Positions 5,091 through 39,271 of a stretch of 44,173 bases of DNA are shown one piece after another; positions within the stretch are counted from its first letter, which is position 1; every line of letters begins with the position of its first letter. Origin of the DNA: a bacterium (GTDB taxonomy: Bacteria; Verrucomicrobiota; Kiritimatiellia; RFP12; UBA1067); the NCBI GenBank assembly GCA_963636335.1, contig CAVHJW010000001.1, positions 1 through 44,173 of the forward strand, read 5' to 3'. The notes under the pieces were generated by a model. It ran no database searches, was not told the origin of the DNA, and worked only from the letters and a program-made list of their open reading frames with translations. Position numbers and translations under genes: made by a program.

Positions 5091-5788
5091 AAACCTGCGT
5101 CGTCATTCCGACCTACGACGAGCGCGCGAACGTTGAGAAGATGGCGCGCGCCGTCTTGGGTCTTGGCATTGATGGCCTTGGGGTTCTCTTCGTTGACGAC
5201 AACTCGCCCGACGGAACGGGCGCGCTCTTGGATGCACTCTCAAAAGAGGATGCGCGCGTCAAGGTTCTTCACCGCGAGAGAAAAGAGGGGTTAGGGCGCG
5301 CCTATGTCGCGGGTTTCCGCGCCGCGCTTGAGCAGGGGGCGGAGCGAATTGTCCAGATGGACTGCGATTTCTCGCATGACCCAAAGGATGTCGCTCGTCT
5401 TCTCGCCGAGGATGCCGACCTTGTCATCGGCTCGCGCTATGTGCCAGGCGGCGCGACACCGGGTTGGCCGTTTAAGCGTCGCCTTGTTTCGCGCGCGGGT
5501 GGGGTCTTCATCCGCATTGTCACGGGAATGCCGCTTCGTGATCCGACGGGTGGCTTTAAGTGCTGGAAGGCCGAGACGCTGAAGAAAATTGACTTTGAGA
5601 CCGTCGCGTCAAAGGGTTATTCGTTTCAGCTTGAGATGAATCATCGCACGTGGAAGGCGGGGTGCTCGATTCAAGAAATCCCCATTGTTTTCACCGATCG
5701 CGCGGCGGGCTATTCAAAGATTACGTCCGGCATTGCCGTTGAGTCCGTCAAGGTTGCCTTGAAATTGCGCGTTGGGGCGTTGACATGA
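5087..5788 (+). CDS. GT2 polyprenol-phosphate mannosyl/glycosyl transferase (Dpm1/Ppm1-like), TTG start
   Basis: Motifs VVIPTYDERANV, FVDDNSPDGTG and MDCDFSHDP. The TTG start overlaps the upstream TGA stop (GTTGA). Confidence 0.75.
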   Translation: MKTCVVIPTYDERANVEKMARAVLGLGIDGLGVLFVDDNSPDGTGALLDALSKEDARVKVLHRERKEGLGRAYVAGFRAALEQGAERIVQMDCDFSHDPKDVARLLAEDADLVIGSRYVPGGATPGWPFKRRLVSRAGGVFIRIVTGMPLRDPTGGFKCWKAETLKKIDFETVASKGYSFQLEMNHRTWKAGCSIQEIPIVFTDRAAGYSKITSGIAVESVKVALKLRVGALT

Positions 5789-9191: not shown

Positions 9192-9236
9192 TTAAGGTGG
9201 CCAACGCCTTTAGTCAACATGCGGGCACGTGCCTGT

Positions 9237-9270
9237 AAATTCAGGCGTGTCACGCCTGAATTTTTTTGTG
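9237..9270 (+). terminator. Rho-independent terminator
   Basis: AAATTCAGGCG / CGCCTGAATTT inverted repeat, followed directly by TTTTTGTGGCTTTTTT. Confidence 0.8.
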
Positions 9271-9297
9271 GCTTTTTTATTTTCTTCTCGCAAATGT

Positions 9298-9308
9298 TGT
9301 GGTATAAT
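9298..9308 (+). promoter_or_regulatory. extended -10 promoter TGTGGTATAAT
   Basis: TGG + TATAAT. The ATG at 9318 lies 9 nt downstream with no Shine-Dalgarno sequence. Confidence 0.55.
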
Positions 9309-9317
9309 TTGCGGCAT

Positions 9318-12300: not shown

Positions 12301-14276
12301 CGCGCCGCTTTAAGCCCTTGAGCCTTTGGAAGGAGGATGTGCCGCTCACAAATGGAGTTGCCACGGTGCGCTTCCATTTGCCTGAATTCGCCGGCGAGGT
12401 GCGCGTCACCGCTGTTGCCTACTCAAAGGTGGGGACGGGGGCGTGCGCCATCAAAAAGAAAGTCGCGCCGCGCCTTATTATGCAGTGCGATGCGCCCCGT
12501 TTTGTTGCGCCGGGCGACCAGTTTGACCTTACGCTCGTTCTCGTGAATCGAAGCGGGAAGGCATCGCAGGCCTCCTACGCACTTTCGTCGGATGGCACAA
12601 TCCAGATTCACGGCGCACCATCAGGTTCTGTGACACTGGCCGCAAACGAGACAAAGACGCTCCGCTTTGCGGCAACATCCGCGCGCGCCGTGGGAGAAGG
12701 GCACATCACCTTCCGCACGACAGGGTGTGGCGAAACACATTGCGAAACAGTGGATCTACCGATTCGTCCTGCTGTTTCGTGGGCGAAGTGCGCCGAGGTC
12801 ATTGTTCTGAAGCCGGGCGAGACAAAGAGCCTGCCCGCCGTTTCGGGTACTTTCGCGGATGCTGCACGCCGTCGTCTTCTGTTGTCAGGTACGCCCACGG
12901 CCGAACTCGTTTCCGCGTTGGACTATTTGGCGGACTATCCGTATGGGTGCCTTGAGCAAACGGTCTCGCGTCTGTATCCGCTTCTCACGGGCGATGTCTT
13001 TCTCACGCGCCTTTCAACGAATGAGACGAGCAAAGCCGAGGAGCGTACGGCCATCTTGGCGGGCGGTGTCGCGCGTGTCGCTTCAATGGTGCGCGAAAAT
13101 GGTTTTACCATGTGGCCCGATGTCAATGTCGAACCATGGGATCTTGAAGTTTCGGCTTATGCGGCGCGCTTCCTCATTGAGGCCTCCGAGGCGGGCATCC
13201 CGCTCTCGCGTTCCGTTCGTTCGCGCGTGATGCGCTTCTTGCAGCGTTGGGTGTATAGCGGGGAGACGAACGTTTGCGCGGCGGCTTGCGAGGCGCTCGT
13301 CCTCGCGCGCGCGCCGAACCGCGACCGCATGTTTTCCCTTTATGACGCGCGCGCGTCGCTCTCGTTGCTCGCGCGTGCACGTCTTGCGCGCGGCTTTATT
13401 CGTCTTGGTGAGATGGCGCGCGCGCGCGAACTTGTCTCTGAGACTGCGTTCGCGCCCACAGATGTTGAAGAGGCGGCCGAAGCACTTCTTGCGCTTCTTG
13501 AGATCGATGCGACAGATCCGCGTGTCGGGCGTCTCGTTCTTGATTTGCAGGCGCGGCGCGACCGCACGCGCTTCCATTGGGGGACGACGCGCGCAAATGC
13601 CGCCGCGCTTCATGCGCTTGGCGCCTACTATCGTGTGGCGGGGCTCGGAGAAGGCACGCCGGAGGTGACGGTGACGAAGGACGGCGCGTCGGTGGCTCTG
13701 CTTCCGAACGGCGAGCGGACGGAAGTCGCGGGTGGCGCGGCGTTGACACTTGCGAATACGGGCAAGGCGACGGCGTTCGTCTCGCTTGATGCGTGGTCGC
13801 TTCCCAATGTTGAGTCAATCACGAATGCGCATCAGGCCATCACCATTGAGCGCACATTTTGGACGATGAAGGGTGAGAAGGCCGATCTTAAGAACGTGAC
13901 GCGCGGGGATATCCTTATTGGCGCGATCACACTCGCGGCAGATTGCGAACTTTCTATCACCGATCTCGTCATTCAAGATTTGCTCCCGGCGGGACTTGAG
14001 CCGGACAGCCCAGACCTCGCTTCAACCTTTGCCGCTCTCGCGCATGCGAAGAAACAAACGTGGGTTTTGCGCGATGACATTCGGGACGATCGCGTTCTCG
14101 TCTTCTCGCGCCCCGTCACGCTTTCGCCGCGTGCGGATGGCGCTCTCACGTATTACTACGCCGTGCGTGCGGTCTCGTCCGGAACGTTCGTCCTGCCGGG
14201 CGTGCGTGTCGAGGCCATGTATGCGCCTGAGATTTTCGCTGAGACGGCTCCGCGCGAACTTGTTATCAAACCTTGA
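9318..14276 (+). CDS. bacterial alpha-2-macroglobulin family protein (thioester-containing)
   Basis: About 1650 aa with the YPYGCLEQTVSRLYPLL thioester motif (CLEQ at 12948-12959). N-terminal hydrophobic anchor MKNAIQSILLVVLTFALCAVFW. I chose the start at 9318 over the tracked 9219, which would run through the terminator and promoter. Confidence 0.85.
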   Translation: MKNAIQSILLVVLTFALCAVFWRILAFNAKNECNVLTGRPPAARVAETNAQSVVINNPSEKQESTILSGHERRSPTVESTPQPGRVREIEFVDDETCPEIRIDLDREPKQDGILQSVTIEPAVENLSVKVGDFSDSSYGWPWRVSLASPNFLFRTNYLVTVKSTFPFADGTTLSNEVRRTFCRRDLDTCVRFADFGRYLPSFGARELALNLVNVTNIDCAVASVLPENVVQLLAREEDVYTDVYRVRADSRATFDLAKAPTCWSERVDLAVNTPEKRVLRLGAEQGVVSNGIYLVSVRDSNCKSEYLWRMRNMFDYRLVCVTDLALSLRKDSKSLRLWVTSLSAGRPLAGLDVRLYAASRACLATGETNEEGEFVFSSWDAREIPFAVVVSKKDGSDATFMALRSSMEIDETLTSGGRKNYLDVGEAQAFIWSDRGIYRPGERMMVHALLRDHAISAPTSFPVVVSLVKPDGKTLVSKTCRADAFGSLVVDDFVFPVDQPTGKWRVKLAIPGECGEVLGSRVVKVEDFVPPLVRVSVEDLPDMSLHATNLQWRVKAENLYGGPATLLKAESRVVFTDAPFAPTAFSAFRFGDAELGLKPNQTELASTKTDERGEATFACSFNEAWGAPKAAMRLLVQGAVVEANGRAAYARASAIVHRYPYYIGSDVPKQIVKAPGAREIRVVLVNPDGTLHTEARELKVELLKIDYVHNLRSRNGSLAWESTRVTRRVPCAESVQIAANGEGTFALPISGQGDYELVLSDEARGLSHRAAFWISDTADEEVHTSLENPARVLIMPDKNVYREGDRPRLTIKAPFPGAAYLTVMRENVLSTRVLMLTNATSVVELESLDAAWAPNVDVAVSVVRAIKATNGAFTSRAHGIAALAIRPRRAEIPVTLAAVATPSSEGGSTLDVNISAVGADRVCLTVVDEGVHLLTTEPVPNPIATFAILREGCHPLYDLFSRVLPVYDGTLKAIGAKTGGGSAADLFNRVSPVPTRRFKPLSLWKEDVPLTNGVATVRFHLPEFAGEVRVTAVAYSKVGTGACAIKKKVAPRLIMQCDAPRFVAPGDQFDLTLVLVNRSGKASQASYALSSDGTIQIHGAPSGSVTLAANETKTLRFAATSARAVGEGHITFRTTGCGETHCETVDLPIRPAVSWAKCAEVIVLKPGETKSLPAVSGTFADAARRRLLLSGTPTAELVSALDYLADYPYGCLEQTVSRLYPLLTGDVFLTRLSTNETSKAEERTAILAGGVARVASMVRENGFTMWPDVNVEPWDLEVSAYAARFLIEASEAGIPLSRSVRSRVMRFLQRWVYSGETNVCAAACEALVLARAPNRDRMFSLYDARASLSLLARARLARGFIRLGEMARARELVSETAFAPTDVEEAAEALLALLEIDATDPRVGRLVLDLQARRDRTRFHWGTTRANAAALHALGAYYRVAGLGEGTPEVTVTKDGASVALLPNGERTEVAGGAALTLANTGKATAFVSLDAWSLPNVESITNAHQAITIERTFWTMKGEKADLKNVTRGDILIGAITLAADCELSITDLVIQDLLPAGLEPDSPDLASTFAALAHAKKQTWVLRDDIRDDRVLVFSRPVTLSPRADGALTYYYAVRAVSSGTFVLPGVRVEAMYAPEIFAETAPRELVIKP

Positions 14277-20796: not shown

Positions 20797-21738
20797 ATGA
20801 AGCGCCTTCTCGTCGGTTATAAGGCGGCGGATCTTAGAAGGGATCTCCTTTCGGGCGACTGCCTCTGCCACGCGCTTGATATCTATCACGCGCATGCGAT
20901 TGAAACCGTCTGGAAGGTTCCTGTTGTGACGACGGCGCACCTGCCTGAAGGGCCGTGGGACGAGATTTTTTTCAAGACGGGCCCGAAGTTGATGAGCGGA
21001 GAGCTTTCGCTCGATCTTCTTCAGGAGATTTCAATTCTTCTCGGGGGCAACCTTCGTGCGCCTCACTTCCATCTTGATTTCGTGGGTCGCGAGCGCGACC
21101 GCAATGATCTCTTGAACAAGGTCAAGGACGACCCCAAGCGCGTCCGAGACTTCTCGGCGAAGTGGCCGGCGAGTGTTCCAGGTGGGCCGAAGCTTCTCTT
21201 TACATCGTTCCCAGGTTGTTTTTGCCATCGTCGCCTTGATGAGGGTGGGCTTGCGCTCGCGGAGGTTGTTTGCCGAGATTTGGAGGAGACGTGGGGCGCG
21301 AGGGCTGGGGAACGCCGCCTTTCTCTTTTGGATATGGGCTGCGGGTGTGGGCTTGTGGGGCTGTTGATTGCGACGCGGTTCTCTTCGCCGATTTCGGTGA
21401 CGCTTGTTGATTCGCATACGCGCGCTCTTGAGGCGGCGGAGGTGAATGCGAAGGCGTTCGGCCTTTGTGATGCGACAACTCTTCTTCTTTCGGACAATGG
21501 AACACCGAAGGAGACGGACGGCACGTTTGATATCTTTGTCGGAAACCCGCCCTATTATTCCGATTACCGCATTGCGGATGTCTTTCTCGAGACGGCGCGC
21601 CGCGCCTTAAAGCCTGGCGGTGTGTGCTACAGCGTGTGCAAGAATGCGGCGGGGCTTGAGCCTGTTCAGAAGCGATTCTTCTCGGCGGTTGAGATCATCC
21701 CGCGCCGCGGCTATTCGGTTCTCAAGTCCGTGCGATAA
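20797..21738 (+). CDS. class I SAM-dependent methyltransferase with NPPY motif (RsmC/RlmG- or HemK-like small MTase domain)
   Basis: Motif I is LLDMGCGCGLVG and motif IV is FVGNPPYY. The N-terminal roughly 160 aa are of unknown function. Confidence 0.6.
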   Translation: MKRLLVGYKAADLRRDLLSGDCLCHALDIYHAHAIETVWKVPVVTTAHLPEGPWDEIFFKTGPKLMSGELSLDLLQEISILLGGNLRAPHFHLDFVGRERDRNDLLNKVKDDPKRVRDFSAKWPASVPGGPKLLFTSFPGCFCHRRLDEGGLALAEVVCRDLEETWGARAGERRLSLLDMGCGCGLVGLLIATRFSSPISVTLVDSHTRALEAAEVNAKAFGLCDATTLLLSDNGTPKETDGTFDIFVGNPPYYSDYRIADVFLETARRALKPGGVCYSVCKNAAGLEPVQKRFFSAVEIIPRRGYSVLKSVR

Positions 21739-21764
21739 CGCGCCACCCCTCGGCGCGACTTTTT
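21739..21764 (+). terminator. weak candidate Rho-independent terminator
   Basis: CGCGCC / GGCGCG stem with a 7-nt loop, followed by ACTTTTT, immediately after the methyltransferase stop codon. Confidence 0.35.
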
Positions 21765-25433: not shown

Positions 25434-26264
25434 ATGGGTTGGTTTGAGCCAAAGAAGGAGAAGGTGGCCATCGCGCCGGCGAAGGCGCTCTGGGCGATTT
25501 GCCCGAAGTGCAAGAGCCACTTCGAGAAGTCGGTCTGGAAGAAAAATAATTCAATTTGCTCGAAGTGCAATTACCACGGGCGGCTTCCTGTCCGTGAGCG
25601 CATTGCGCAGATTGCAGACGCGGGTTCGTTCAAGGAGGTCTTCCGCGAGATCTCCTATTCGGATCACCTCGCGTTCCATGATGCGACGGGGGCCTACAAA
25701 GAGAAGGTTGAGGCCACGATTGCGAAGACGGGCGAGACCGAATCCATCGTGATGGGCGCGTGCACCATTGACAAGCATCCCGCGATGCTGGGCGTGATGG
25801 ACTTTGGCTTCATGGGTGGTTCGCTCGGCACGGGCACGGGTGAACGCATCGCCCGCGCGTGTGAGCAAGCGATTGCCGAGCGCCGTGCGCTCGTCATTTT
25901 CTCGGCCTCAGGCGGCGCGCGCATGCACGAGGGTATTCTTTCGCTTATGCAAATGGCGAAGACGTCGGCCGCGATCGCGCGGCTGAAAGAGGCGGGGCTT
26001 CCCTTTATCTCCGTTCTCACCGACCCGACGACGGGCGGTGTCTCGGCTTCGTTCGCGATGCTCGGTGACATCAACGTGACGGAGCCGAAGGCACTCATCG
26101 GTTTCGCGGGGCGTCGCGTCATTGAGAACACGATTCACCAGAAGCTTCCTGATGACTTCCAGACGGCCGAGTATCTCGAGAAGCACGGCTTCATTGACCG
26201 CGTCGTTGAGCGTAAAAATCTCAAGGCGTTCATCGCGAAGATGCTCGGCTATTTCGGCGTTTAA
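25434..26264 (+). CDS. accD: acetyl-CoA carboxylase carboxyltransferase beta subunit
   Basis: N-terminal Zn ribbon CPKCKSHFEKSVWKKNNSICSKCNYH, then GFMGGSLG and SASGGARMHEG. I chose the ATG at 25434 (GGGAG Shine-Dalgarno sequence) over the tracked 25299, which lies inside the ACAD gene. Confidence 0.9.
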   Translation: MGWFEPKKEKVAIAPAKALWAICPKCKSHFEKSVWKKNNSICSKCNYHGRLPVRERIAQIADAGSFKEVFREISYSDHLAFHDATGAYKEKVEATIAKTGETESIVMGACTIDKHPAMLGVMDFGFMGGSLGTGTGERIARACEQAIAERRALVIFSASGGARMHEGILSLMQMAKTSAAIARLKEAGLPFISVLTDPTTGGVSASFAMLGDINVTEPKALIGFAGRRVIENTIHQKLPDDFQTAEYLEKHGFIDRVVERKNLKAFIAKMLGYFGV

Positions 26265-26285
26265 AGACTTTCAAGGAGAAGAGAC

Positions 26286-27089
26286 ATGGCTGGCAAGACA
26301 ATGACGGCGTTTGATAAGGTGAAGATCGCGCGCGACCCGAAGCGCCCGCACCTGAAAGACTTCATCGCTGGGATGTGCGAGGATTTTGAGGAACTTCATG
26401 GCGACCGCCTCGTGAACGACGACCGCGGTCTCGTTGCGGGCTTCGCAACGATTGACGGCGAGAAGTGCCTCGTTCTCGGACACAACAAGGGCGCGACGGT
26501 TGAGGAGAATATGGCCTCCAACTTCGGCATGGCGAATCCCGATGGCTATCGCAAGGCGATGCGTCTTGCGAAGCTCGCCGAGCGCTTCGCGTTGCCGGTT
26601 GTCACCTTCGTTGACACGCCCGGTGCCTATCCAGGCAAGGAGGCGGAAGAGCGCGGTCAGGCCGAGGCGATTGCGAAGAGCCTTGAGTTCTTCTCGCGTC
26701 TCGCTACGCCAATCGTTGTTGTCGTGACGGGTGAAGGCGGTTCGGGCGGCGCGCTCGCGATCGCCGTCGGTGATCGTATCCTCATGATGGAGAACGCGGT
26801 CTATTCGGTGATTTCCCCCGAGGGATGCGCAGGCATTCTTTGGCGTGACGGCAAGAAGGCACCTGAGGCGGCTGAGGCGCTCAAGGTGACGGCCCCTGAT
26901 CTTCTTCAGTTGAAGGCGATTGATGAGATTGTCAAAGAGCCCGCGGGTGGCGCGCAAAAGAATCATAAGACGGCGATTGCGAACGTAAAGAAAGCCGTCT
27001 TGAAGGCGATTCGAGAATTGAAGAAGATTCCCGTTGAGCAACTTCTTGAGATGCGCTACGAAAAATTGCGCGGCTACGGCAAGAAGTGA
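26286..27089 (+). CDS. accA: acetyl-CoA carboxylase carboxyltransferase alpha subunit (short N-terminus)
   Basis: ARDPKRPHLKDF, VLGHNKG, FVDTPGAYPG and GEGGSGGALAI. Confidence 0.9.
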   Translation: MAGKTMTAFDKVKIARDPKRPHLKDFIAGMCEDFEELHGDRLVNDDRGLVAGFATIDGEKCLVLGHNKGATVEENMASNFGMANPDGYRKAMRLAKLAERFALPVVTFVDTPGAYPGKEAEERGQAEAIAKSLEFFSRLATPIVVVVTGEGGSGGALAIAVGDRILMMENAVYSVISPEGCAGILWRDGKKAPEAAEALKVTAPDLLQLKAIDEIVKEPAGGAQKNHKTAIANVKKAVLKAIRELKKIPVEQLLEMRYEKLRGYGKK

Positions 27090-28219
27090 GCGCCGTCTCC
27101 CTTTCGGACTTCGGTCTCGTCTCGGCGCTTGGTTGCGGGAAAGAAGAAAGCGAAAAGAATCTTTTTCTCGGCTCGCGCACGAACATGAAGGAAATCTCGC
27201 TCGCAGGAGGCGAGACTTCCTTTTTTGGCTTTGCCGCGCTTACTCCTGATGGGTTTGCGTCCGCGCCAACGCGTGTCGCCGCGCTTCTTGATGCGGCCGC
27301 GCGTCAACTTGATTGGAAGGCGCTCTACGCAGAGGTTGATCCGCGAAAAGTCGGCGCGGTTGTCGGGACGAGTAACTCAACGATGGAGGAGTTTACGGAT
27401 AAGCCCGACAAGATTGATATGGCTTATCCAGCCGAGCGCCTACGCGAAGTCTGGGGGGTGAAGGGCCCCGCCTACAGCGTTTCCACGGCGTGCTCGTCGA
27501 GTGCGAAAGCGTTCATGTCGGCGCGCCGTCTTCTTGAAGCGGGTGTTTGCGATGCCGTCATCGTGGGTGGCGCGGACGCAAAGACGCGCACCGTGATTGA
27601 AGGCTTTCATTCACTTGAGTCGCTTGCTGCGGGGTACACGAAGCCGCTTTCTGACGCGCGCGACGGCATCAATTTAGGCGAAGGCGCGGCCCTCTTTGTC
27701 ATGCGCCGCCTTGGCGAGAGTCGCGCCCCAGATGACATTCTTCTTCTGGGCGTGGGCGAGTCATCTGATGCCTATCACCTCACTGCGCCCGATCCCGAAG
27801 GGCGCGGCGCGGAGCGCGCGATGCGCCTCGCCCTTGAGGATGCGGGGCTTTCGCCCTCTCGCATTGACTATATCAACTTACATGGAACGGGGACGCGCTA
27901 TAATGACGCGATGGAATGTGCGGCCGTTCGGCGCGTTTTTGGTGACCAGATTCCTGTTTCCTCCACGAAGCCTTTAACGGGGCATTGCCTGGGCGCGGCG
28001 GGGGCTGTTGAAGCCGCGCTCTCGGCGCTTGCGCTTCAGCGAGGAAGGGGACTTCCGCCGCACGTCATTGATGCGCCCATTGATCTTAACCTCGCGCCAT
28101 TCCCAATTCCGAGCGTTGGTGACAAGACGCCTGTTCAGACGATTCTTTCAAATGCATTCGCCTTCGGTGGAAGTAACGCGAGCCTTATCCTCTCTCGCGC
28201 GCGAAAGGGGGACGCATGA
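27086..28219 (+). CDS. beta-ketoacyl synthase, aryl-polyene ApeO-like position (Cys-His-His intact)
   Basis: Active-site TACSSS (Cys codon 27491-27493), NLHGTGT and TGHCLGAAG. The GTG start overlaps the accA stop (GTGA). Confidence 0.8.
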   Translation: MSAVSLSDFGLVSALGCGKEESEKNLFLGSRTNMKEISLAGGETSFFGFAALTPDGFASAPTRVAALLDAAARQLDWKALYAEVDPRKVGAVVGTSNSTMEEFTDKPDKIDMAYPAERLREVWGVKGPAYSVSTACSSSAKAFMSARRLLEAGVCDAVIVGGADAKTRTVIEGFHSLESLAAGYTKPLSDARDGINLGEGAALFVMRRLGESRAPDDILLLGVGESSDAYHLTAPDPEGRGAERAMRLALEDAGLSPSRIDYINLHGTGTRYNDAMECAAVRRVFGDQIPVSSTKPLTGHCLGAAGAVEAALSALALQRGRGLPPHVIDAPIDLNLAPFPIPSVGDKTPVQTILSNAFAFGGSNASLILSRARKGDA

Positions 28220-28671
28220 CAGATCTTGAACGCCTCCTGCCGCAGAAGAGCCCGATGATCCTCTTGAGCGGCTACGACGAATCGGGTGATGACGTGATGC
28301 GCGTCACGGCGTATGTTGATATTGAGGCCTCGTCGCCGTTCTGTGAGGCCGAGGGTGTCCCAGCGTGTGTGGCGCTCGAATATATGGCGCAGGCGATGGC
28401 CCTTGTCGTCGGTCGCCTCCGCGCGGCGCGGGGGCTTTCTGCACAAATCGGCTTTGTTCTGGGCTCACGCAAATTTGAGACATTTATTCCTTTTTTTGCC
28501 CGTGGTCAGCGTTACACGGTGACCGCCTCATGCACCTACGAAGATGAGTCGTTTGGCAGTTTCGACTGCACGGTTTCGTCTTCCTCGGGTGTGCTCGCCG
28601 CGCGCGCGACGATGACGGCATACCAACCTTCGGGCGACATGACAGAGGAGAAACTTGAAGCCTATGAATAA
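28216..28671 (+). CDS. hotdog-fold 3-hydroxyacyl-ACP dehydratase-like protein (ApeP-like), with Gln at the expected His position
   Basis: 151 aa. N-terminal LLPQKSPMILL and central ACVALEYMAQAMAL resemble the FabZ / ApeP-type LLPHxxPMLLLD ... E..AQ layout. ATGA overlap with the upstream KS. Confidence 0.6.
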   Translation: MTDLERLLPQKSPMILLSGYDESGDDVMRVTAYVDIEASSPFCEAEGVPACVALEYMAQAMALVVGRLRAARGLSAQIGFVLGSRKFETFIPFFARGQRYTVTASCTYEDESFGSFDCTVSSSSGVLAARATMTAYQPSGDMTEEKLEAYE

Positions 28672-29341
28672 GACGGTCATCGTGACGGGGTCAAGCCGCG
28701 GCATCGGCAAGGCGATTGCCGAGACGCTACGCGCCGACGGTTATTCGGTTGTCACGCACTCGGTGAAGTCGGGCGGCACCGACCTCGTCTTCGATGTCGC
28801 CGACCGCGCGGCGGCGAAGGCGGCGTTGGACGCGTTCGTGGCCGAGCACGGCGCACCCTATGGCATCGTTCTTAACGCGGGTATTGCCGATGACAATGCG
28901 TTCCCCGCGATGGAGGATGCGCAGTGGGATCGCGTCCTTCGGACGGACCTTGACGGGTTTTACAATGTCCTAAAGCCTCTCGTCCTGCCTATGGTCCAAG
29001 CGCGACAGGGCGGGCGCATCGTCGTCATCTCGTCAATCTCGGGCGTGATTGGCAATCGCGGCCAGACGAACTATGCGGCCGCGAAGGCGGGGCTTATTGG
29101 CGCGGCGAAGTCGCTCGCGGTGGAGCTCGCGCGCCGTCGGATCACGGTCAACTGCATCGCGCCGGGCGTTGTTGAGACGGAGATGATTGAGGGCGTCTTT
29201 GCCGAGGAGGTCTTAAAGGCGATCCCGATGCGGCGCTTTGGTCGCCCCGAGGAGGTCGCGGGGGCGGTTCGTTATTTTCTTTCTGATGAGGCCGCTTATG
29301 TGACGCGGCAGGTCTTGAATGTGAACGGAGGGATGTTCTGA
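28664..29341 (+). CDS. 3-oxoacyl-ACP reductase (SDR, FabG/ApeQ-like)
   Basis: TGSSRGIG, NAG and the catalytic S...YAAAK (NYAAAKAG). An alternative TTG start lies at 28655. Confidence 0.85.
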   Translation: MNKTVIVTGSSRGIGKAIAETLRADGYSVVTHSVKSGGTDLVFDVADRAAAKAALDAFVAEHGAPYGIVLNAGIADDNAFPAMEDAQWDRVLRTDLDGFYNVLKPLVLPMVQARQGGRIVVISSISGVIGNRGQTNYAAAKAGLIGAAKSLAVELARRRITVNCIAPGVVETEMIEGVFAEEVLKAIPMRRFGRPEEVAGAVRYFLSDEAAYVTRQVLNVNGGMF

Positions 29342-29342
29342 A

Positions 29343-30566
29343 ATGAGGCGCGTCGTTGTCACGGGAATGGGAATTGTCAGTTCGCTCGGCCATGATGTCG
29401 CGACGGCCTTTGAGCACCTTCAGACAAAGAAAAATTGTGTTGAGGTCTCGGCGGATCTCATGACCTATAAGGGGCTTCAGACGCACCTCTGGGCACCCGC
29501 AAAATGGACGCGCCCCGCGCGCTATACACGTAAGATTGTGCGCACGATGAGCCCTGTTTCGGAAATGGCGCTCGATGCGACCGAGCAGGCCATCGCTCAG
29601 GCCGGGCTTACCGATTCGCCCATTCTCAAGGCGGGTCGTTGCGGCGTTGCTTACGGCTCGTGCTCGGGTGGCGTTGAGGCGAACGCCGACTTCTTCTCGA
29701 TTCTCATGAACCGCGAGGTGCGGAACGTGACGAGCTCAACCTACATCAAGATGATGCCGCAGACCTGCGCCGTGAATCTCTCCGTTCATTTCGGGACAAC
29801 GGGGCGACTTTTGCCGACGGGAACGGCGTGCACGTCGGGTTCGCTCGCAATCGGCGAGGCGTGCGAGGCCATTCGCTTCGGTCAGCAGGATGTCATGATC
29901 GCGGGCGGCGCGGAGGAGTTTTCCGTCACACAGGTCGCCGTCTTTGATACGCTCTTTGCAACGTCGCGTTGTAATGAAACACCCGAGGCCACGCCGCGTG
30001 CGTTTGATTCAAGCCGTGACGGGCTTGTGATTGGCGAGGGCGCGGCGACGCTCATCTTGGAGGAGCGTGACCATGCGCTTGCGCGTGGCGCGACCATTCT
30101 CGCGGAGGTTGCGGGTTTTGGTACAAACACCGATGGACGCCACGTCACCCAGCCGAATGCCGAGACGATGGCGGCGGCCTTGCGCCTTGCGCTTCAGGAT
30201 GCGGTCCTCTCGCCGGAGGCGATTGGCTACGTCAATGCGCACGGCACGGCGACCGATCGAGGCGATGTCGCAGAAGGGACGGCGATGGCGACCGTCTTTG
30301 GCGCCTCGCGCCCCGCCGTGAGCACGATTAAAAACTACACGGGGCATACGCTCGGCGCGTGTGGTGCGATTGAGGCCATCATGACGATTGAAATGATGCG
30401 CCACGGTCTTTTCGCCCCGAACCTCAACCTTGTCACGCCCGACCCCGCCTGCGGTGAGCACGACTTTATTATGGGCGATATGCGGCATCTTGAAACCGAG
30501 TATGTGATGAGCAACAATTTTGCCTTCGGTGGCATCAACACCTCGCTTGTTTTTCGTCGCACATGA
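29343..30566 (+). CDS. beta-ketoacyl-ACP synthase (FabF/FabB-like, ApeR-like position; Cys-His-His intact)
   Basis: GTACTSGS (Cys codon 29829-29831), NAHGTAT, TGHTLGACG and the C-terminal NNFAFGGINTSLVF. Confidence 0.85.
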   Translation: MRRVVVTGMGIVSSLGHDVATAFEHLQTKKNCVEVSADLMTYKGLQTHLWAPAKWTRPARYTRKIVRTMSPVSEMALDATEQAIAQAGLTDSPILKAGRCGVAYGSCSGGVEANADFFSILMNREVRNVTSSTYIKMMPQTCAVNLSVHFGTTGRLLPTGTACTSGSLAIGEACEAIRFGQQDVMIAGGAEEFSVTQVAVFDTLFATSRCNETPEATPRAFDSSRDGLVIGEGAATLILEERDHALARGATILAEVAGFGTNTDGRHVTQPNAETMAAALRLALQDAVLSPEAIGYVNAHGTATDRGDVAEGTAMATVFGASRPAVSTIKNYTGHTLGACGAIEAIMTIEMMRHGLFAPNLNLVTPDPACGEHDFIMGDMRHLETEYVMSNNFAFGGINTSLVFRRT

Positions 30567-31027
30567 AAAAAGCTCGTCTACTCGGCATGCGGCGCGTTCA
30601 GTCGCTCAACGAGGCGGATGTCTCGTTCGTGCCGCCGCTTTTGCGTCGTCGCCTCTCGCCTCTGCAACGGATTTTCTTCTTTCTCGCGCACTTTGACGAG
30701 ACGCTGCCGACACCGAAGCGCGTTGTCTTCGCAAGTCGCGACGGCGAAGATACGCTCACGCGCCGCACGGTTGAAGATTTTCATACGGATGGCACCGCCT
30801 CACCGCATCGCTTCAGCGCGTCTGTCTATAACGCCGCGCCTGGGCTTTGGAGCGTCTTTACGAAGAACATCGCGCCTTACACGTCTGTTGCCGCCGGGCG
30901 TGAAACCGTTCGCGTCGGCCTTTTGGAGGCGCTTCTCCCCGCCGAGACGCCGACCCTGTTTGTCTACGCTGAAGAAACGGATGGCGGGCACGGCTTCTCT
31001 TGTCTCTATGGCTTCGACGGCGATTAG
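30563..31027 (+). CDS. chain-length-factor-like protein (Ketoacyl-synt_2 / ApeC-like, no active-site Cys)
   Basis: 154 aa. LLRRRLSPLQR, VFASRDGE, SPHRFSASVYNAAPG and LFVYAEE follow the pattern of the short KS N-terminal-domain proteins that partner with KS in aryl-polyene-type clusters. ATGA overlap with the upstream KS. Confidence 0.65.
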   Translation: MKKARLLGMRRVQSLNEADVSFVPPLLRRRLSPLQRIFFFLAHFDETLPTPKRVVFASRDGEDTLTRRTVEDFHTDGTASPHRFSASVYNAAPGLWSVFTKNIAPYTSVAAGRETVRVGLLEALLPAETPTLFVYAEETDGGHGFSCLYGFDGD

Positions 31028-31736
31028 GCTTCTGCGCGGCTCTCTTGCGGTCCTCTTCGGCTTTGCCTTCGCCGTGGGCGCGATTCTTCTTTCGCCGCTC
31101 ATGCTCGTTTTCTCGCGCCCCGAAGGCGCCCAGCCGCTCGTTCGCGCCATTTGGCGACCGCTCGTGTGGCTTTTTGAGAAAACGCGCCTCATTCGCGTCG
31201 TGCGCGGCGATGTTGAAAGCCCACACGGCGCGATCATCGTCGCGAATCACCCCTCGCTCATTGATGTTGTCCTTTTTGTCGCGCTTTTTCCAAAGACGCT
31301 TTATGTTGCGAAGTCGCCTCTTCGCTCAAGTTTCGCCCTTGGGCGCATCGTCCGCGCGACCTCGCTTTTTGATGACGCGCGTCTTCTTGATGAGGCGCGG
31401 CCCTATCTTGAGCACGGTTGGAATATCCTTATTTTTCCCGAGGGGACGCGCTCGCCAAAGGAAGGGCTTCATTCCTTCCGGCGCGGCGCGGCGCAACTCG
31501 CCCTCCGCACGGGCGCGCCGCTTGTTGCGATGGGTCTTTGTCTCTCGCGCCGTATTCTTGCGAAGGGACAGCCGCTCTTTGACATGGGCGAAAAGACGGT
31601 CGTCTATTCGTTTCACGCGCGCGCGCCGTTTCGCGCCGAGGTGAGACCTGGAGAGAGCGCGCACGCGGCGGCGGTACGTGTCACGCGTGATCTTGAAGAG
31701 GCGATCGCCCTGAATCTTCAGAAGGACAGTGAGTAA
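31008..31736 (+). CDS. lysophospholipid / 1-acyl-sn-glycerol-3-phosphate acyltransferase family (LPLAT, ApeD-like position)
   Basis: HX4D motif NHPSLID (31248-31265), FPEGTRS, and an N-terminal TM segment. I chose the ATG at 31008. The tracked 30618 start is Arg-rich shadow over the CLF gene. Confidence 0.75.
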   Translation: MASTAIRLLRGSLAVLFGFAFAVGAILLSPLMLVFSRPEGAQPLVRAIWRPLVWLFEKTRLIRVVRGDVESPHGAIIVANHPSLIDVVLFVALFPKTLYVAKSPLRSSFALGRIVRATSLFDDARLLDEARPYLEHGWNILIFPEGTRSPKEGLHSFRRGAAQLALRTGAPLVAMGLCLSRRILAKGQPLFDMGEKTVVYSFHARAPFRAEVRPGESAHAAAVRVTRDLEEAIALNLQKDSE

Positions 31737-31771
31737 CCGAGTAATATTCGATAATGAAGGGGGAATCAAAA

Positions 31772-32536
31772 ATGGAACAGGGCTCTCGAGGCGAGTATGA
31801 TTTTAGGGTGCGCACATACGAGTGCGGACCCGATGGCGTTGCGACATTACCGACCCTTTGCAATTATTTGCAGGAAGCAGCCAGTATGAATGCGGAGGCG
31901 TTGGCTTTCTCGCGCACAAACTTTATGGCGGAGGGTGAGAATATCTCGTGGGTGTTGACGCGCTTGCGCGTTTGCATGACGCGCTATCCGAAATGGGAGG
32001 AGACTGTGCATGTTGTCACGTGGCCGAGCGGTGGGCGGCGCGTGGCTGCGACGCGCGAGTTTAGGCTCTGCGACGACACGGGCGCGCAAATCGGTGTGGC
32101 GACGAGCGAGTGGATGCTCATTGATCTTGCGACGCGCCGCATCGTGCCTATCCCCGAAACGGTTCTTGCCCTTGCGCAGGGATCTACGCGCGTGCTCGAA
32201 GACGCGCCCTTTACAAAATTGCGCTGGACCTGCACGGAGACGACATCTGACGCGCAGACGTTTCGCGCACGCCGCAGCGACATTGACCTCAACGGCCATG
32301 TCAACAACGTTCATTATGTTTCATGGCTTCTTGAGACGGTGCCCGCAGGCTTTTGCACGGATTTTGAAATCGTCTATCGCTCCGAGACGCGGGTCGGCGA
32401 AATCGTGCGTGCGGAGAGCGTGGAGGTTGAGCCTCACGTCTTCGTGCATCGCCTTTCCGATTCCACCGGCCACGATCACGTTCTCGCTTGTACGCGCTTC
32501 GCGAGCGAGCCGACACGTTTATCGGATCGTTCATAG
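31772..32536 (+). CDS. acyl-ACP thioesterase (FatA/FatB-type double hotdog)
   Basis: YDFRVRTYECGPDGVATLPTLCNYLQEAA and DIDLNGHVNNVHY are typical of the Acyl-ACP_TE family. The ATG at 31772 follows an AGGGGGA Shine-Dalgarno sequence, and the ATG at 31754 is an alternative start. Confidence 0.75.
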   Translation: MEQGSRGEYDFRVRTYECGPDGVATLPTLCNYLQEAASMNAEALAFSRTNFMAEGENISWVLTRLRVCMTRYPKWEETVHVVTWPSGGRRVAATREFRLCDDTGAQIGVATSEWMLIDLATRRIVPIPETVLALAQGSTRVLEDAPFTKLRWTCTETTSDAQTFRARRSDIDLNGHVNNVHYVSWLLETVPAGFCTDFEIVYRSETRVGEIVRAESVEVEPHVFVHRLSDSTGHDHVLACTRFASEPTRLSDRS

Positions 32537-35419: not shown

Positions 35420-37125
35420 ATGGAGACATCATTCGAGACCGTTGTTGAGATTTTGGAACGCAACGCGCGCGAGTGGCCGAACGACGTCGCGCTCGTTGAG
35501 ATCAATCCGCAAGAGCTGGAAGCGCACCATACGACATGGCGCGAATATTCGCTCATTGAGAGTTCTTCCATTGAGGCGTTTCGGAGCGAGATGACATGGC
35601 GCGCATTCGATGAGAAGGCGAATCGCTTTGCGAATCTCCTTTTGAGCCGCGGCTTCAAGAAGGGCGAGAAGGTCGCGATTCTCCTCATGAATGGCTTGGA
35701 GTGGTTGCCGATTTACTTCGGCATTTTGAAGGCGGGCTGTATGGCTGTGCCGCTCAACTTCCGCTACACGGCCGACGAGATCAAGTATTGCCTCGAGCTT
35801 TCGGATGCGCAAGCCCTCGTCTTTGGGCCTGAGTTTATTGGTCGCGTTGAGCAGATTATTGACCTCGTGCCGGCCGTTAAGACGCGTTTCTATGTGGGCG
35901 ATGACTGCCCCTCGTTCGCTGATTCCTACCAGACGCTTCTTTCCTATTGCTCGTCTAAGGCACCCGCGATTCCGATGACGACGGATGACGAGGCGGCTAT
36001 CTACTTTTCGTCGGGGACTACGGGCTTCCCGAAAGCGATCGTCCTTCAGCACCACTGCCTTGTCCATGCCTGCAAGGTTGAGCAAGATCACCACGGCCAG
36101 ACGAAGGACGACACGTTCCTCTGCATTCCGCCACTCTATCATACGGGCGCGAAGATGCACTGGTTTGGCTCGTTGCTCGTGGGTGGCCGCGCCGTTCTCC
36201 TAAAGGGTGTCAAGCCCGAGTGGATTTTGCGTGCGGTCTCGGAGGAACGTTGCACGATTGTTTGGCTGCTCGTTCCTTGGGCGCAAGACATCTTGGACGC
36301 CATTGAGCGCGGTGATGTGAACCTCGCAGACTTCCGCCTTGCGCAGTGGCGGCTTATGCATATCGGTGCGCAGCCTGTTCCGCCCGCGCTCATCAAGAGG
36401 TGGAAGACGGTCTTTCCTCATCACGACTACGACACGAACTACGGGCTTTCGGAGTCGACGGGTCCGGGAGCCGTTCACCTGGGCGTTGAGAACATTGACC
36501 ACGTTGGCGCGATTGGCGTTCCCGGCTACGGTTGGCAGACAAAGATTGTGGGCTCAGACGGCATCACGCCCGTCGAGGACGGCAAGGTGGGTGAACTTGC
36601 GCTCAAAGGCCCAGGCGTCATGAAGGAATATTATAAGAACCCGCAGGCGACGGCCGAAATTATGAAGGAGCCCGGGTGGCTCTTGACGGGCGACATGGCG
36701 GAAAAGCGCGATGGTTTCATTTACCTCGTTGATCGCGCGAAAGATGTCATCATCTCGGGTGGCGAGAATCTTTACCCCGTTCAGATTGAAGACTTCATTC
36801 GCGCACATCCCGCGGTGAAGGATGTTGCGGTCATCGGCCTACCTGACAAGCGCATCCCGCGGTGAAGGATGTTGCGGTCATCGGCCTACCTGACAAGCGA
36901 CTCGGTGAAATCGCGACGGCGATTGTCTCGGTGAAGGATGGCGCGACGCTCGACGAGGCGCAGTTGCAGACGTTCTGTTTGGGGCTGCCGCGCTACAAGA
37001 GACCGCGCAAAATCATCTTCGCAGAGGTGCCGCGCAACCCGACGGGCAAAATTGAGAAGCCGCGCCTCCGCAAAATGTATGGCGCGGAGACCCTCGTCGC
37101 CCAGCAGAACGGCATTGAGGTCTAA
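35420..37125 (+). pseudogene. AMP-dependent acyl-CoA/aryl-CoA ligase interrupted by a 47-bp tandem duplication (frameshift)
   Basis: Motifs YFSSGTTGFPKAI (A3), NYGLSES (A5), LTGDM (A7) and VDRAKDVIISGGENLYP (A8) lie in ORF 35420-36865. The remaining C-terminus, including PRNPTGKIEK (A10 Lys), lies in ORF 36862-37125 in another frame. Deleting one 47-bp copy yields a continuous 552-codon ORF reading ...GLPDKRLGEIATAIV.... Confidence 0.8.
36805..36898 (+). repeat. perfect 47-bp direct tandem duplication (2 copies)
   Basis: 36805-36851 and 36852-36898 are both CATCCCGCGGTGAAGGATGTTGCGGTCATCGGCCTACCTGACAAGCG, verified base by base. Confidence 0.95.
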
Positions 37126-37150
37126 CGAATCAGGGCAACATTCGGCCGAA

Positions 37151-37161
37151 TATGGTATAAT
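37151..37161 (+). promoter_or_regulatory. extended -10 promoter TATGGTATAAT
   Basis: Exact 11-mer. The ATG at 37172 lies 10 nt downstream with no Shine-Dalgarno sequence. Confidence 0.6.
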
Positions 37162-37171
37162 ACGATACAAT

Positions 37172-39271
37172 ATGGACAAGCAGAATCTCTATCTCGGTAT
37201 CGACATTGGCTCGACGACGTTCAAGGCTGTTCTTCTCGCGGGCGATGGCACTGTCCTTCGCACCGTCTACAAGCGGACGCAGCCCGTTGAGGCGGGCAAG
37301 GTCGCGTGCACGGGGCACTGTCATGCGTGTGGCGCGTGCAGCGGCGGGTCGGTGAAGCGTCTCGCGCTTGAGTTCCTGAAGGTTGCGGGCATCGCATCTT
37401 TCTCGGATCTCTCGTCTTTTGTCGTGACGGGTAGCCAGATTGTTGAGGACACAAAGAAATTCTTGCCTTTCGACTTTCAGGTGAGTGAGGTGACCGCGCA
37501 CGTTGCGGGCGCAAAGTTCCTTCATCCCGATGTTGATGCCATTATTGACTGCGGCGGTCAGGACTCAAAGTGCATGGTCTACAATCCGCCGATGAACCTC
37601 TGGACGAGCATGATGAGCGGCGTCTGCGCGGCGGGAACGGGCAGTTTCCTCGACTCGGTGGCGCAGAAGCTCGGCGTCCGAATTGAGGATGTCGCCGACC
37701 GTGTCAACTACGACTCAAAGACTGAATTCAGTTCCGTCTGCGCCGTCCTCTCGGCGACGTCGATCAACAAGTTTAAGAACCGCGTGCCGCTCGGTGATCT
37801 CTTGGCCGGCGCGTGCAAGGCGCAGGCGCGCACGATTCTTAACTCGGTTGGTCAGCTCCTCTTGAATGCTCCAGGTCGCAAGATTCTCTTTCAGGGCGGC
37901 GTTGCGTTCAACAAGGCCGTTGCTTACTTCCTCGGCAAACTGACGGGCAGCGAGATTATTATTCCGCAGTATCACGAGGTGATGGGCGCACTCGGCGCGG
38001 CCGTCATTGCGCGCCAACTTCATGACCTCAAGGTGTCGGGTCATCTGAATCTTGAGAAGGTTGACTACGAGCCGACGCGCGGGAAGTCCGTTCTTCTGCG
38101 CATCAAGTCGACGAAGCACGACTTCTTCTCGAAGGACGAAACGAAGCCGCTCGTTTGGCGCAATCTCTTCTTCCCGACTGAAATCCTGAATGCGATGGAC
38201 TGCCGCGTGCGCACGCTTGAGACCTACGCCGCGCTCTTTGGTCGCCGCGCCGACAAGGTGAAGGAGGCTCTCGGGCGCGCCGCGCAGAAGGGCTTCGACG
38301 GGCAGACGTGTTCGTTTTTGCGTATGCTTGAAGGTATGGATCTCGAGAAGCCTGACTTCATCGTCTCAACCGTTCAGCCGTGTCAGCAGGCCGAGCGTGT
38401 TTTCGCCGATCTCGCGCGCGAATACAAAATTGAGGATCGTCTCTACTCGTTGCAGACGCCGATCAACGCACACTCGCGCAACGCCGTGGAGGTGATGGCC
38501 GACGGGCTTGCCGAGTCTGTCTTTGAGATGGAGAAGGCCTTTGGGCGCAAGATGGATCCAGGTCGACTTGAAGAGGCGTGCGTCCTTTCAAACGAGGCCG
38601 CCGCGCTTGCGAAGAAGTGTCAGGAATTGCGCTTCACATCCCCGCCGCTCGTGCGCGGGAGCGAGGCGATTTACAACGCTATCGTCTTCTCGCAGCTCTG
38701 GGGGCGCCAAGATCTCGTGGATATCCAGAAGGCCTACTACGAGGAACTTCTGATGAAGAAGGAGTGGGCCGAGAAGCGCTACAAAATGGGTGACACGCAC
38801 CGCCTCCTCTGGCTTCACCTGCCACCGTTCTACGATACGCGCCACCTTGACTTTATTGAGACGACGTGCAATGCGCCGATCGTCTTCGAAGAGACGAACT
38901 TCGTCGGCTGGGAGCCGCTTGACCCGAAAGATCCCTACCGCTCGCTCGCGAAGAAGCTCCTTCAGTCAGGCTTTCTCGACCCCGCGCTGCGCGTTGAGTA
39001 CGTCAAGCGCGCCATTCCAGCGGGTCAGTTCAATGGCGTCATCCTCTACACACACGGCTTTGGTCGCTGCTCGCTTGCCGACCGCGCGCTCTCCAAGCAT
39101 CTGCGCGAGGAGCTTGATGCGATCCATGTGCCGCTTCTCACGCTTGAGGGCGACTGCATGGATGCGTCGATCGACCCGTGCTCAACAACGACGAAGATTG
39201 CTTCGTTCGCGGAGGCGCTGAACCTAAACCGTTACGGGAATATCTTCGGCAAACTCAACGAGAAGAAATGA
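37172..39271 (+). CDS. fusion of a BcrAD/BadFG-type (HgdC-like) ATPase activase with a 2-hydroxyacyl-CoA dehydratase (HGD-D) domain
   Basis: The N-terminal half has LGIDIGSTTFKAV, DCGGQDSKC, VCAAGTGSFLD and SSVCAVLSATS, collinear with HgdC including its two cluster Cys. The C-terminal half has QTCSFLR, QPCQQAE, TTCNAPIV, GFGRCS and LEGDCMD, which is HGD-D-like. I chose the start at 37172. The tracked 36938 start is an Arg-rich overlap with the ligase gene. Confidence 0.8.
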   Translation: MDKQNLYLGIDIGSTTFKAVLLAGDGTVLRTVYKRTQPVEAGKVACTGHCHACGACSGGSVKRLALEFLKVAGIASFSDLSSFVVTGSQIVEDTKKFLPFDFQVSEVTAHVAGAKFLHPDVDAIIDCGGQDSKCMVYNPPMNLWTSMMSGVCAAGTGSFLDSVAQKLGVRIEDVADRVNYDSKTEFSSVCAVLSATSINKFKNRVPLGDLLAGACKAQARTILNSVGQLLLNAPGRKILFQGGVAFNKAVAYFLGKLTGSEIIIPQYHEVMGALGAAVIARQLHDLKVSGHLNLEKVDYEPTRGKSVLLRIKSTKHDFFSKDETKPLVWRNLFFPTEILNAMDCRVRTLETYAALFGRRADKVKEALGRAAQKGFDGQTCSFLRMLEGMDLEKPDFIVSTVQPCQQAERVFADLAREYKIEDRLYSLQTPINAHSRNAVEVMADGLAESVFEMEKAFGRKMDPGRLEEACVLSNEAAALAKKCQELRFTSPPLVRGSEAIYNAIVFSQLWGRQDLVDIQKAYYEELLMKKEWAEKRYKMGDTHRLLWLHLPPFYDTRHLDFIETTCNAPIVFEETNFVGWEPLDPKDPYRSLAKKLLQSGFLDPALRVEYVKRAIPAGQFNGVILYTHGFGRCSLADRALSKHLREELDAIHVPLLTLEGDCMDASIDPCSTTTKIASFAEALNLNRYGNIFGKLNEKK

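Follow-up and report, generated by a model that had tools for sequence, protein, structure and literature searches.

Aryl polyene (APE) gene clusters, as described in Escherichia coli CFT073 (apeA-R), Xenorhabdus doucetiae and Acinetobacter baumannii, encode type II polyketide synthases (PKS) of a well-known family. Clusters assigned by antiSMASH to the 'arylpolyene' class have already been counted in metagenome-assembled genomes (MAGs) of gut Lentisphaerae and Verrucomicrobia (PMC9769736), and the presence of APE-type clusters in this group is hence already visible in antiSMASH surveys. Here we analyze a 44,173-nucleotide stretch of DNA (contig CAVHJW010000001.1 of GenBank assembly GCA_963636335.1; hereafter the window, meaning the whole of this stretch) from a species of Kiritimatiellia of the animal gut. 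The window carries a block of six core genes (27086-31736) that their sequences identify as orthologs of ApeO-ApeP-ApeQ-ApeR-ApeC-ApeD, the same core enzyme set as in the three described clusters. The analysis outlined below leads us to favor, as the moderately probable interpretation, that an ordinary APE-type cluster has been split by genome rearrangement and that the block represents the half responsible for chain building and lipid attachment, separated from its partner genes.

The genes of the block, and the thioesterase gene that comes after them, lie on the forward strand and overlap or abut one another, with gaps of -20 to +35 bp. The first encodes a putative ApeO-type elongating ketosynthase (KS1, 377 aa; 27086..28219; Pfam PF00109 and PF02801), and is followed by genes for an ApeP-type hotdog dehydratase subunit (DH, 151 aa; 28216..28671; PF22817), a probable ApeQ-type 3-ketoacyl-acyl carrier protein (ACP) reductase of the short-chain dehydrogenase/reductase (SDR) superfamily (KR, 225 aa; 28664..29341; NF004200), an ApeR-type, FabB-like homodimeric ketosynthase (KS2, 407 aa; 29343..30566; NF006587/PRK09116), an ApeC-type chain-length factor (CLF, 154 aa; 30563..31027; Ketoacyl-synt_2, PF13723) and an ApeD-type, PlsC-family lysophospholipid acyltransferase (242 aa; 31008..31736; PF01553). 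A FatA/B-type acyl-ACP thioesterase (254 aa; 31772..32536; PF01643 and PF20791) comes last, as a neighbor that is probably not a dedicated part of the block, and the accD-accA genes for the carboxyltransferase subunits of acetyl-CoA carboxylase (25434..27089, forward strand; assigned with Pfam) are located directly upstream of KS1. The open reading frames (ORFs) of the block are unbroken in seven genomes of the species, comprising the window and six sister MAGs (GCA_963628225.1, GCA_963660195.1, GCA_963615675.1, GCA_963616085.1, GCA_963658055.1 and GCA_963629165.1) whose contigs match it with 99.5% identity. An earlier note, made from the letters of this DNA alone, had described the gene content of this region, and its description proved real, with the acyltransferase and thioesterase starts corrected here to 31008 and 31772. 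Its description of an APE-like type II core is borne out by the NCBIfam, Pfam and PDB sequence matches detailed below and by the structural similarity that Foldseek detected for the 154-aa protein, and the catalytic motifs it had quoted for KS1, KS2 and the acyltransferase were all located at the expected positions.

Both ketosynthases present the residues expected of active condensing enzymes. KS1 contains TACSSS at residue 134, HGTGT at 266 and GHCLG at 299, with Cys136, His266 and His300 in place, and KS2 contains TACTSG at 161, HGTAT at 300 and GHTLG at 334, with Cys163, His300 and His335. The top PDB matches of KS1 were X. doucetiae ApeO (XdApeO, 6qsp_A, 245.8 bits) and A. baumannii ApeO (AbApeO, 7f28_B, 236.4 bits), with FabF proteins at 170 bits or less. 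Those of KS2 were PpApeR (4ewg, 448.9 bits) and AbApeR (7f27, 437.1 bits), with FabF and FabB proteins at 258 bits or less; both structures have been identified as ApeR by their depositors (PMC8358021). Among the NCBIfam models, KS2 scored above the equivalog cutoff of NF006587 (587 bits versus 470) and KS1 reached 387.8 bits with NF006618/PRK09185 (cutoff 407), and both failed the FabF model TIGR03150 (226 bits for KS1 and 344 bits for KS2, with a cutoff of 493.75).

The 154-aa protein, designated CLF-like in the earlier note, matched the CLF-like family PF13723 with 97.7 bits (cutoff 25) in a hidden Markov model search. Its only Cys residue (C147) is found near the C-terminus, outside an active-site context. 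Sequence matches in the PDB were to AbApeC (7f28_A, E 1e-10) and XdApeC (6qsp_B, E 4e-4), and a Foldseek search with its AlphaFold2 model (predicted local distance difference test score of 84) ranked ApeC chains in the first three places (E 5e-9 to 1e-7) and the actinorhodin CLF after them. The earlier designation is thus supported by the PF13723, PDB and Foldseek results, which together identify the protein, at the level of sequence and predicted structure, as an ApeC-type CLF, that is, a half-size ketosynthase without the catalytic Cys. By analogy, KS1 is predicted to pair with it. The family alignment revealed that the window protein is a short form, lacking about 45 C-terminal residues that are present in most Kiritimatiellia homologs.

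The SDR, for which the start was taken from the gene calls of the six sister MAGs, contains TGSSRGIG and YAAAK motifs and matched the FabG model NF004200 with 329 bits (cutoff 273); it scored just under the cutoff of TIGR01831 (fabG_rel; 319.5 bits versus 338.85) and below that of the flexirubin FlxB model NF053542 (230.5 bits versus 340). Its gene sits between the ApeP and ApeR homologs, as in the APE family. The acyltransferase presents an N-terminal transmembrane (TM) segment and an HX4D motif (HPSLID) at residue 81, and it matched PF01553 (61.8 bits) and the TIGR00530 domain. In related loci its gene always comes after the ApeC-like gene, as it is in canonical clusters, and the protein appears to be of the ApeD type, with a lysophospholipid as its predicted substrate.

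The dehydratase indicates that the block does not operate by itself. The window DH matched the ApeP-like family PF22817 with 46.3 bits (cutoff 27), and its best PDB match was XdApeP (6qsr_B, E 9e-13). In FabZ-type dimers, the active site is composed of a His from one subunit and a Glu from the other. We aligned the window DH and its Kiritimatiellia orthologs with E. coli FabZ, XdApeP and ApeI-like domains; here and below, L007, L010 and similar labels designate homologous loci fetched from relatives. The window protein has no His in its entire length and retains the FabZ-type Glu (ALEYMAQ), and all the Kiritimatiellia ApeP-like proteins likewise preserve the Glu that FabZ has in its "EAMAQ" helix and have lost the His of "GHFPG". 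Xenorhabdus ApeP retains both residues. The ApeI domains, including 6qsr_A, 3esi_A and the C-termini of the ApeH/I proteins of L010, L025 and L067, show the complementary state, with GHFPG kept and Gly replacing the Glu (LPGVAQ). Given this division of the half-sites, only an ApeP/ApeI heterodimer would complete the site in these organisms, and the window DH is predicted from its sequence to be unable to work without an ApeI-type partner. To our knowledge, ApeI-type subunits are the only donors of the missing His half-site.

Strong purifying selection acts on the core. Ratios of non-synonymous to synonymous substitution (dN/dS) between the window and L007, a sister species with 84% nucleotide identity, were 0.106 for KS1, 0.077 for DH, 0.018 for KR, 0.063 for KS2 and 0.10 for the CLF, that is, 0.02-0.11 for five of the six genes, as compared with 0.059 for accA. 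The maintenance of a His-less DH suggests that its partner is encoded elsewhere, and partner proteins are almost certainly needed by the core.

Such partners were not detected in the window. No ACP-like ORF was found in any frame of the 44 kb (phmmer with three ACPs, best E 0.34), and queries with the Kiritimatiellia ACP1, ACP2, ApeG-like, ApeH/I, LolA-like and exporter proteins, as well as with ApeK-like 4HBT thioesterases and ApeJ-like GT2-family glycosyltransferases, returned no match at E<0.2 over the same 44 kb. On this point the earlier note is upheld, as the ACP, ApeI, ApeH and export genes that it had reported missing are indeed absent locally. FabH, FabD, AcpP and the enoyl reductases FabI/K/L/V are not encoded in the window either. 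For FabD this is normal in APE clusters, since the in vitro reconstitution of APE synthesis reportedly borrowed FabD from primary metabolism.

Glycosyltransferase and methyltransferase genes, which the earlier note had also listed as absent, are missing from the block but occur elsewhere in the window, as a GT2 (5087-5788) and a methyltransferase (20797-21738). This GT2 was considered as a displaced ApeJ and rejected, having about 25% identity to cluster-linked GT2s that share 60-80% among themselves. Similarly, the window has no ApeH-like adenylating enzyme, but an AMP-binding gene is present at 35420, 2.9 kb downstream of the block. It is FadD-like (NF004837, 324 bits), and the idea that it belongs to the cluster and was displaced from it was rejected, given its identity of only 25-27% to the cluster-adjacent AMP-binding genes of L016 and L026. 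Within this FadD-like gene, at 36806-36899, a 47-bp sequence is duplicated exactly in tandem (2.0 copies, 100% match). The duplication is present in none of the six sister MAG contigs and causes a frameshift that shortens the product from the 552 aa of the MAGs to 481 aa; it reflects either a genuine mutation of recent origin or an error of the assembly.

The genes missing from the window are found next to the same core in related genomes. Relatives were scanned using one genome per GTDB species and the 154-aa protein family as the query. The 60 loci obtained are nearly all labeled as Kiritimatiellia, Verrucomicrobia or Lentisphaerae and of animal-gut origin; as every locus was fetched through a homolog of the 154-aa protein, the set only reveals what accompanies that gene and cannot provide the frequency of the cluster in the clade. 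Most loci with enough flanking sequence present the (KS1)-DH-KR-KS2-CLF-acyltransferase core, with a few lacking DH, KR or the acyltransferase. In at least 11 loci, a full first half is located directly before KS1, in the order ACP-ACP-membrane protein-ApeH/ApeI-LolA_3-12-TM protein. It encodes two PP-binding proteins of 92 and 85 aa, a small, ApeG-like membrane protein with four TM segments (about 130 aa), an AMP-binding/ApeI-like fusion (about 440 aa), the LolA-like protein and a large protein without a Pfam match (820-1050 aa, about 12 TM segments). In some lineages the cluster additionally includes an ApeJ-like GT2 gene, as well as one for an ApeK-like 4HBT thioesterase.

The Kiritimatiellia order is therefore E-F-G-H/I-L-M-O-P-Q-R-C-D. 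In a scan of JGI metagenomes, the canonical order C-D-ACP-ACP-G-H/I-(J)-(K)-exporter-O-P-Q-R was observed in dozens of contigs from other phyla, which indicates that the Kiritimatiellia order is a rotation of the canonical one and that the window holds its distal half. In this one sense, the earlier characterization of the block as permuted was right. A variant was noted in the 'Candidatus Spyradenecus' group, where the ApeO-like ketosynthase and the ApeP-like dehydratase are apparently fused into proteins of about 520-560 aa (L058:6256-7900, confirmed with Pfam; L042, L055, L059-L062, L064 and L066, as deduced from ORF length) and where the GT2 and 4HBT thioesterase genes lie between ApeH/I and the LolA-like gene.

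The comparative analysis also revealed that the cluster has been fragmented repeatedly in this clade. Breaks were identified after KS1 (L068-70, L075, L082 and L084) and after ApeH/I or the LolA-like gene (L071-74, L077, L079-81 and L095-100), whereas in the window clade (the window, L007 and L009) the break lies before KS1, which is preceded by accD-accA. In three cases, both parts were found on separate contigs of a single MAG, with unrelated genes at the break: L018 and L075 in UBA1731, L030 and L071 in CAYQUI01, and L040 and L082 in CAVAHB01. The ApeR-ApeC junction can be broken too, as in L012, where two unrelated ORFs (529 and 438 aa; L012:5952-8865) and additional sequence, about 4 kb in total, lie between KS2 and the ApeC-like gene. 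In L079-L081 (e.g. L079:6424-11841), the ACP-ACP-membrane protein-ApeH/I-LolA-like module was observed directly after mlaE-mlaF-mlaD, which encode outer-membrane lipid transport components. The position following the acyltransferase is also variable, being occupied by an ApeK-like 4HBT thioesterase in L007, by an ApeJ-like GT2 in L009-L012 and by the FatA/B thioesterase in the window, and these differences define a rearrangement hotspot.

These results speak against the minimal or trimmed pathway proposed in the earlier note, given that in relatives these six genes adjoin every one of the missing parts and that the cluster is repeatedly broken up in the clade. They are consistent with a rearrangement that would have placed the O-P-Q-R-C-D module behind accD-accA, leaving the ACPs, the ApeG-like protein, the ApeH-ApeI fusion, the LolA-like protein and the exporter to act in trans from elsewhere in the genome. 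Under this model, ApeH would load a starter unit on an ACP, as is presumed by homology with described systems (PMC8253772, PMC8358021). The starter would be condensed with malonyl-ACP, with ApeR (KS2) aiding initiation and throughput and ApeO/ApeC (KS1 and the 154-aa protein) carrying out elongation. Each beta-keto group would be reduced by the ApeQ reductase and dehydrated by ApeP/ApeI to generate a trans double bond, and, with no enoyl reduction, a conjugated polyene could grow. The ApeD-like acyltransferase would then move the chain to a lysolipid-type anchor for export by the LolA-like protein and an RND-like protein.

Several observations weigh against this interpretation. Among the loci of the first half, detected through homologs of the L010 ApeH/I, none came from the six sister MAGs, although only about 14 of 565 ApeH/I clusters were inspected and the negative result for the missing half is for this reason weak. 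No first-half locus resembled the window in tetranucleotide usage, the best correlation being r=0.65 against 0.79 for the window halves and L007. Furthermore, loss of the first half does occur: in the L085-L094 lineage, which is related to L071, this half has decayed and consists, in this order, of a divergent GT2, an ApeH of 278 aa that lacks the ApeI domain and a LolA-like gene of 171 aa (e.g. L085:7280-9349), with the ACP and membrane protein genes deleted, and the same arrangement was observed on 23 contigs from many samples. Among the core genes, the acyltransferase yielded a dN/dS of 0.50, which is unreliable and was discarded, as it was computed on a stop-to-stop ORF with an out-of-frame overlap. 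Lastly, the product may be an aryl polyene or another polyenoyl lipid. Neither a comparison of GC content nor a search for shared housekeeping genes linked any of the first-half loci to the window, and the JGI metagenome scan returned mostly distant APE clusters of other phyla and nothing for this species.

Two arguments on the fate of the missing half were abandoned. The lack of an ApeH/I match at 68-77% identity had been considered as a sign of loss, and this was rejected because many other lineages are at least as close to L010 as the core of the window is. Likewise, p637 had been considered as a MurC/B ortholog that could serve as a divergence ruler against L079, and it turned out to be an M3 peptidase. 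The split state of the cluster in this species is thus inferred from the loci of its relatives and from the features of the core.

Among the alternatives, the one that best withstands the evidence, although we deem it unlikely, is that the ACP/ApeG/ApeH-I/exporter half has been lost and that the core operates with housekeeping AcpP and FabD, co-expressed with accDA, to make a starter-less polyenoyl or hydroxyacyl chain for the acyltransferase to transfer or the FatA/B thioesterase to release. No first-half gene lies in the 44 kb and none of this species was among the ApeH/I loci inspected, which is in agreement with such a loss, and so is the presence of new neighbors at both ends of the cluster, conserved in the clade. 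In particular, the GTG start of KS1 overlaps the accA stop by 4 bp (GTGA), which amounts to translational coupling with accDA, and this junction is conserved in L007 and L009, making co-expression with the malonyl-CoA supply plausible. In E. coli, deletion of the ACP gene apeF leaves partial pigmentation, and AcpP has been put forward as a possible malonyl carrier (PMC8253772), which likewise speaks for this alternative. The decay documented in L085-L094 leads us to keep a low but appreciable probability for true loss in the lineage of the window.

The dehydratase, however, is difficult to reconcile with a trimmed pathway. Half of its FabZ-type site is gone, the protein remains under strong purifying selection in this state (dN/dS 0.077), and the only donors known to us for the His half-site are the ApeI-type subunits that would have been lost. 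The small sample of ApeH/I clusters inspected further reduces the force of the negative search. A thioesterase of some type does follow the acyltransferase in both the window and L007, but the FatA/B enzyme is a general Kiritimatiellia gene that is not linked to the core elsewhere: it has 792 homologs, many of them in Kiritimatiellia at 57-76% identity, and in none of the other loci examined does it lie within 10 kb of the APE genes. The earlier note had regarded it and the acyltransferase as two competing off-loading enzymes. The thioesterase is widespread in the class and borders the core in this species alone; most likely, it is a neighbor without a competing off-loading role. A more elaborate version of the loss scenario, in which the core has been rewired with accD-accA, the FatA/B thioesterase and perhaps the etfBA-acyl-CoA dehydrogenase genes, and uses a housekeeping ACP and a His donor other than ApeI to make a starter-less polyenoyl or hydroxyacyl membrane lipid, appears decidedly improbable.

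The upstream flank bears on another explanation, whereby the block would be the housekeeping type II fatty acid synthesis (FAS II) set of the organism, with the etfBA-acyl-CoA dehydrogenase proteins as enoyl reductase and accDA providing malonyl-CoA. The genes etfB-etfA-acad are located just upstream of accD-accA, and from etfB through KS1 to the thioesterase all genes are on one strand with gaps of at most 44 bp. Their combined activities would extend from condensation, reduction and dehydration, with a possible enoyl reduction, to acyl transfer and hydrolysis, and a terminator-like hairpin is found just upstream of etfB. The spacing is uninformative, since gaps of 44 bp or less extend from etfB (21812) through the AMP-binding gene and tight packing is a property of the whole 44-kb window. 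We consider this explanation very unlikely: both ketosynthases fail the FabF equivalog model and KS2 passes the ApeR-type one, the DH belongs to the ApeP family and is devoid of His, a half-size CLF has no role in FAS II, FabH, FabD, AcpP and FabI/K/L/V are not in the window, the electron transfer flavoprotein and acyl-CoA dehydrogenase are CoA-type enzymes whose genes lie beside the core in the window clade alone, and the same six genes are found inside complete APE clusters of relatives. Least likely of all is a non-functional relic of a cluster undergoing loss, which the local absence of partners and the decay seen in another lineage might suggest, but which is at odds with the intact catalytic motifs, with ORFs preserved in the window and the six sister MAGs, and with dN/dS values of 0.02-0.11 against L007.

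Other features of the window and of the loci sampled were noted in passing. All the credible genes of the window (1-44173) are on the forward strand. The hairpin before etfB is GC-rich, is followed by a T-run (21739-21757, in a 73-bp gap) and is the only terminator-like site near the block that falls between genes. A long transcription unit running from etfB to the acyltransferase could begin at this point. A scan of the window for promoter and terminator motifs gave counts not above those of shuffled sequence. A bacterial alpha-2-macroglobulin of 1685 aa, which comprises MG2, bMG3/5/6/10, bait-region and TED domains, is encoded at 9219-14276, and a single ORF at 36938-39271 encodes a BcrAD/BadFG-type activator ATPase fused to a 2-hydroxyacyl-CoA dehydratase D-component (777 aa in the window versus 699 aa as called in the sister MAGs). 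Several loci of the Kiritimatiellia type (L008, L009, L011, L034, L040, L048 and L050) come from MAGs titled Methanomethylophilaceae archaeon, Alistipes onderdonkii, Faecalibacterium prausnitzii, Gemmiger, Lachnospira or Azospirillum, which points to mislabeled bins or contaminating contigs.

In comparison with the APE clusters of E. coli, Xenorhabdus and Acinetobacter, the window shares the O-P-Q-R order and the adjacency of C and D, and its relatives contain the ACP pair, ApeG-like, ApeH, ApeI, LolA-like and exporter genes of those clusters, as well as, in some cases, the GT2 and 4HBT genes. No homolog of ApeA, ApeB (methyltransferase) or ApeN was seen in any Kiritimatiellia locus. The window differs in that its module stands alone behind accDA, with no genes for carriers, starter loading or export over 27 kb upstream and 11 kb downstream, and in that C-D come after R and not before E. 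The ApeC homolog is shorter (154 aa versus 204 aa in AbApeC and 239 aa in XdApeC), the ApeP homolog has lost the catalytic His that XdApeP retains, and the host is a strict gut anaerobe. The full-length clusters of gut Kiritimatiellia (e.g. L010 of UBA1727, L025 and L067) are closer, with proteins 60-80% identical to those of the window and the same KS1-DH-KR-KS2-CLF-acyltransferase order and overlaps. They present the first half before KS1 and often a GT2 after the acyltransferase, whereas the window has accDA and the FatA/B thioesterase at these positions.

Housekeeping FAS II has in common with the window its enzyme superfamilies, the condensation, reduction and dehydration chemistry on ACP thioesters and the malonyl-CoA supply through accDA, but not the CLF, the His-less ApeP-type DH or a pair of ketosynthases that fail the FabF model. 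Flexirubin and xanthomonadin clusters, which form other branches of the APE family, contain related KS, KR and DH families; DarA/DarB-type dialkylresorcinol, halogenase and tyrosine ammonia-lyase genes were not seen in the window or the related loci, in which no search with dedicated models was made.

The comparison has several implications. The complementary half-sites, with the Glu only in the ApeP subunit and the His only in the ApeI domain, predict obligate heterodimerization. A biosynthetic gene cluster fragment that appears minimal, such as the one in the window, can be one piece of a broken-up cluster, and as the APE-type cluster of gut Kiritimatiellia is split at several points with its pieces under selection, cluster-based mining is bound to under-call or mis-call it. 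The occurrence of an APE-type lipid across an order of strictly anaerobic gut bacteria would also be of some interest for the debate on the "antioxidant" role of these pigments. To the well-known APE family, the window adds a member distinguished by its break point, by an ApeC of reduced length and by an ApeP devoid of His.

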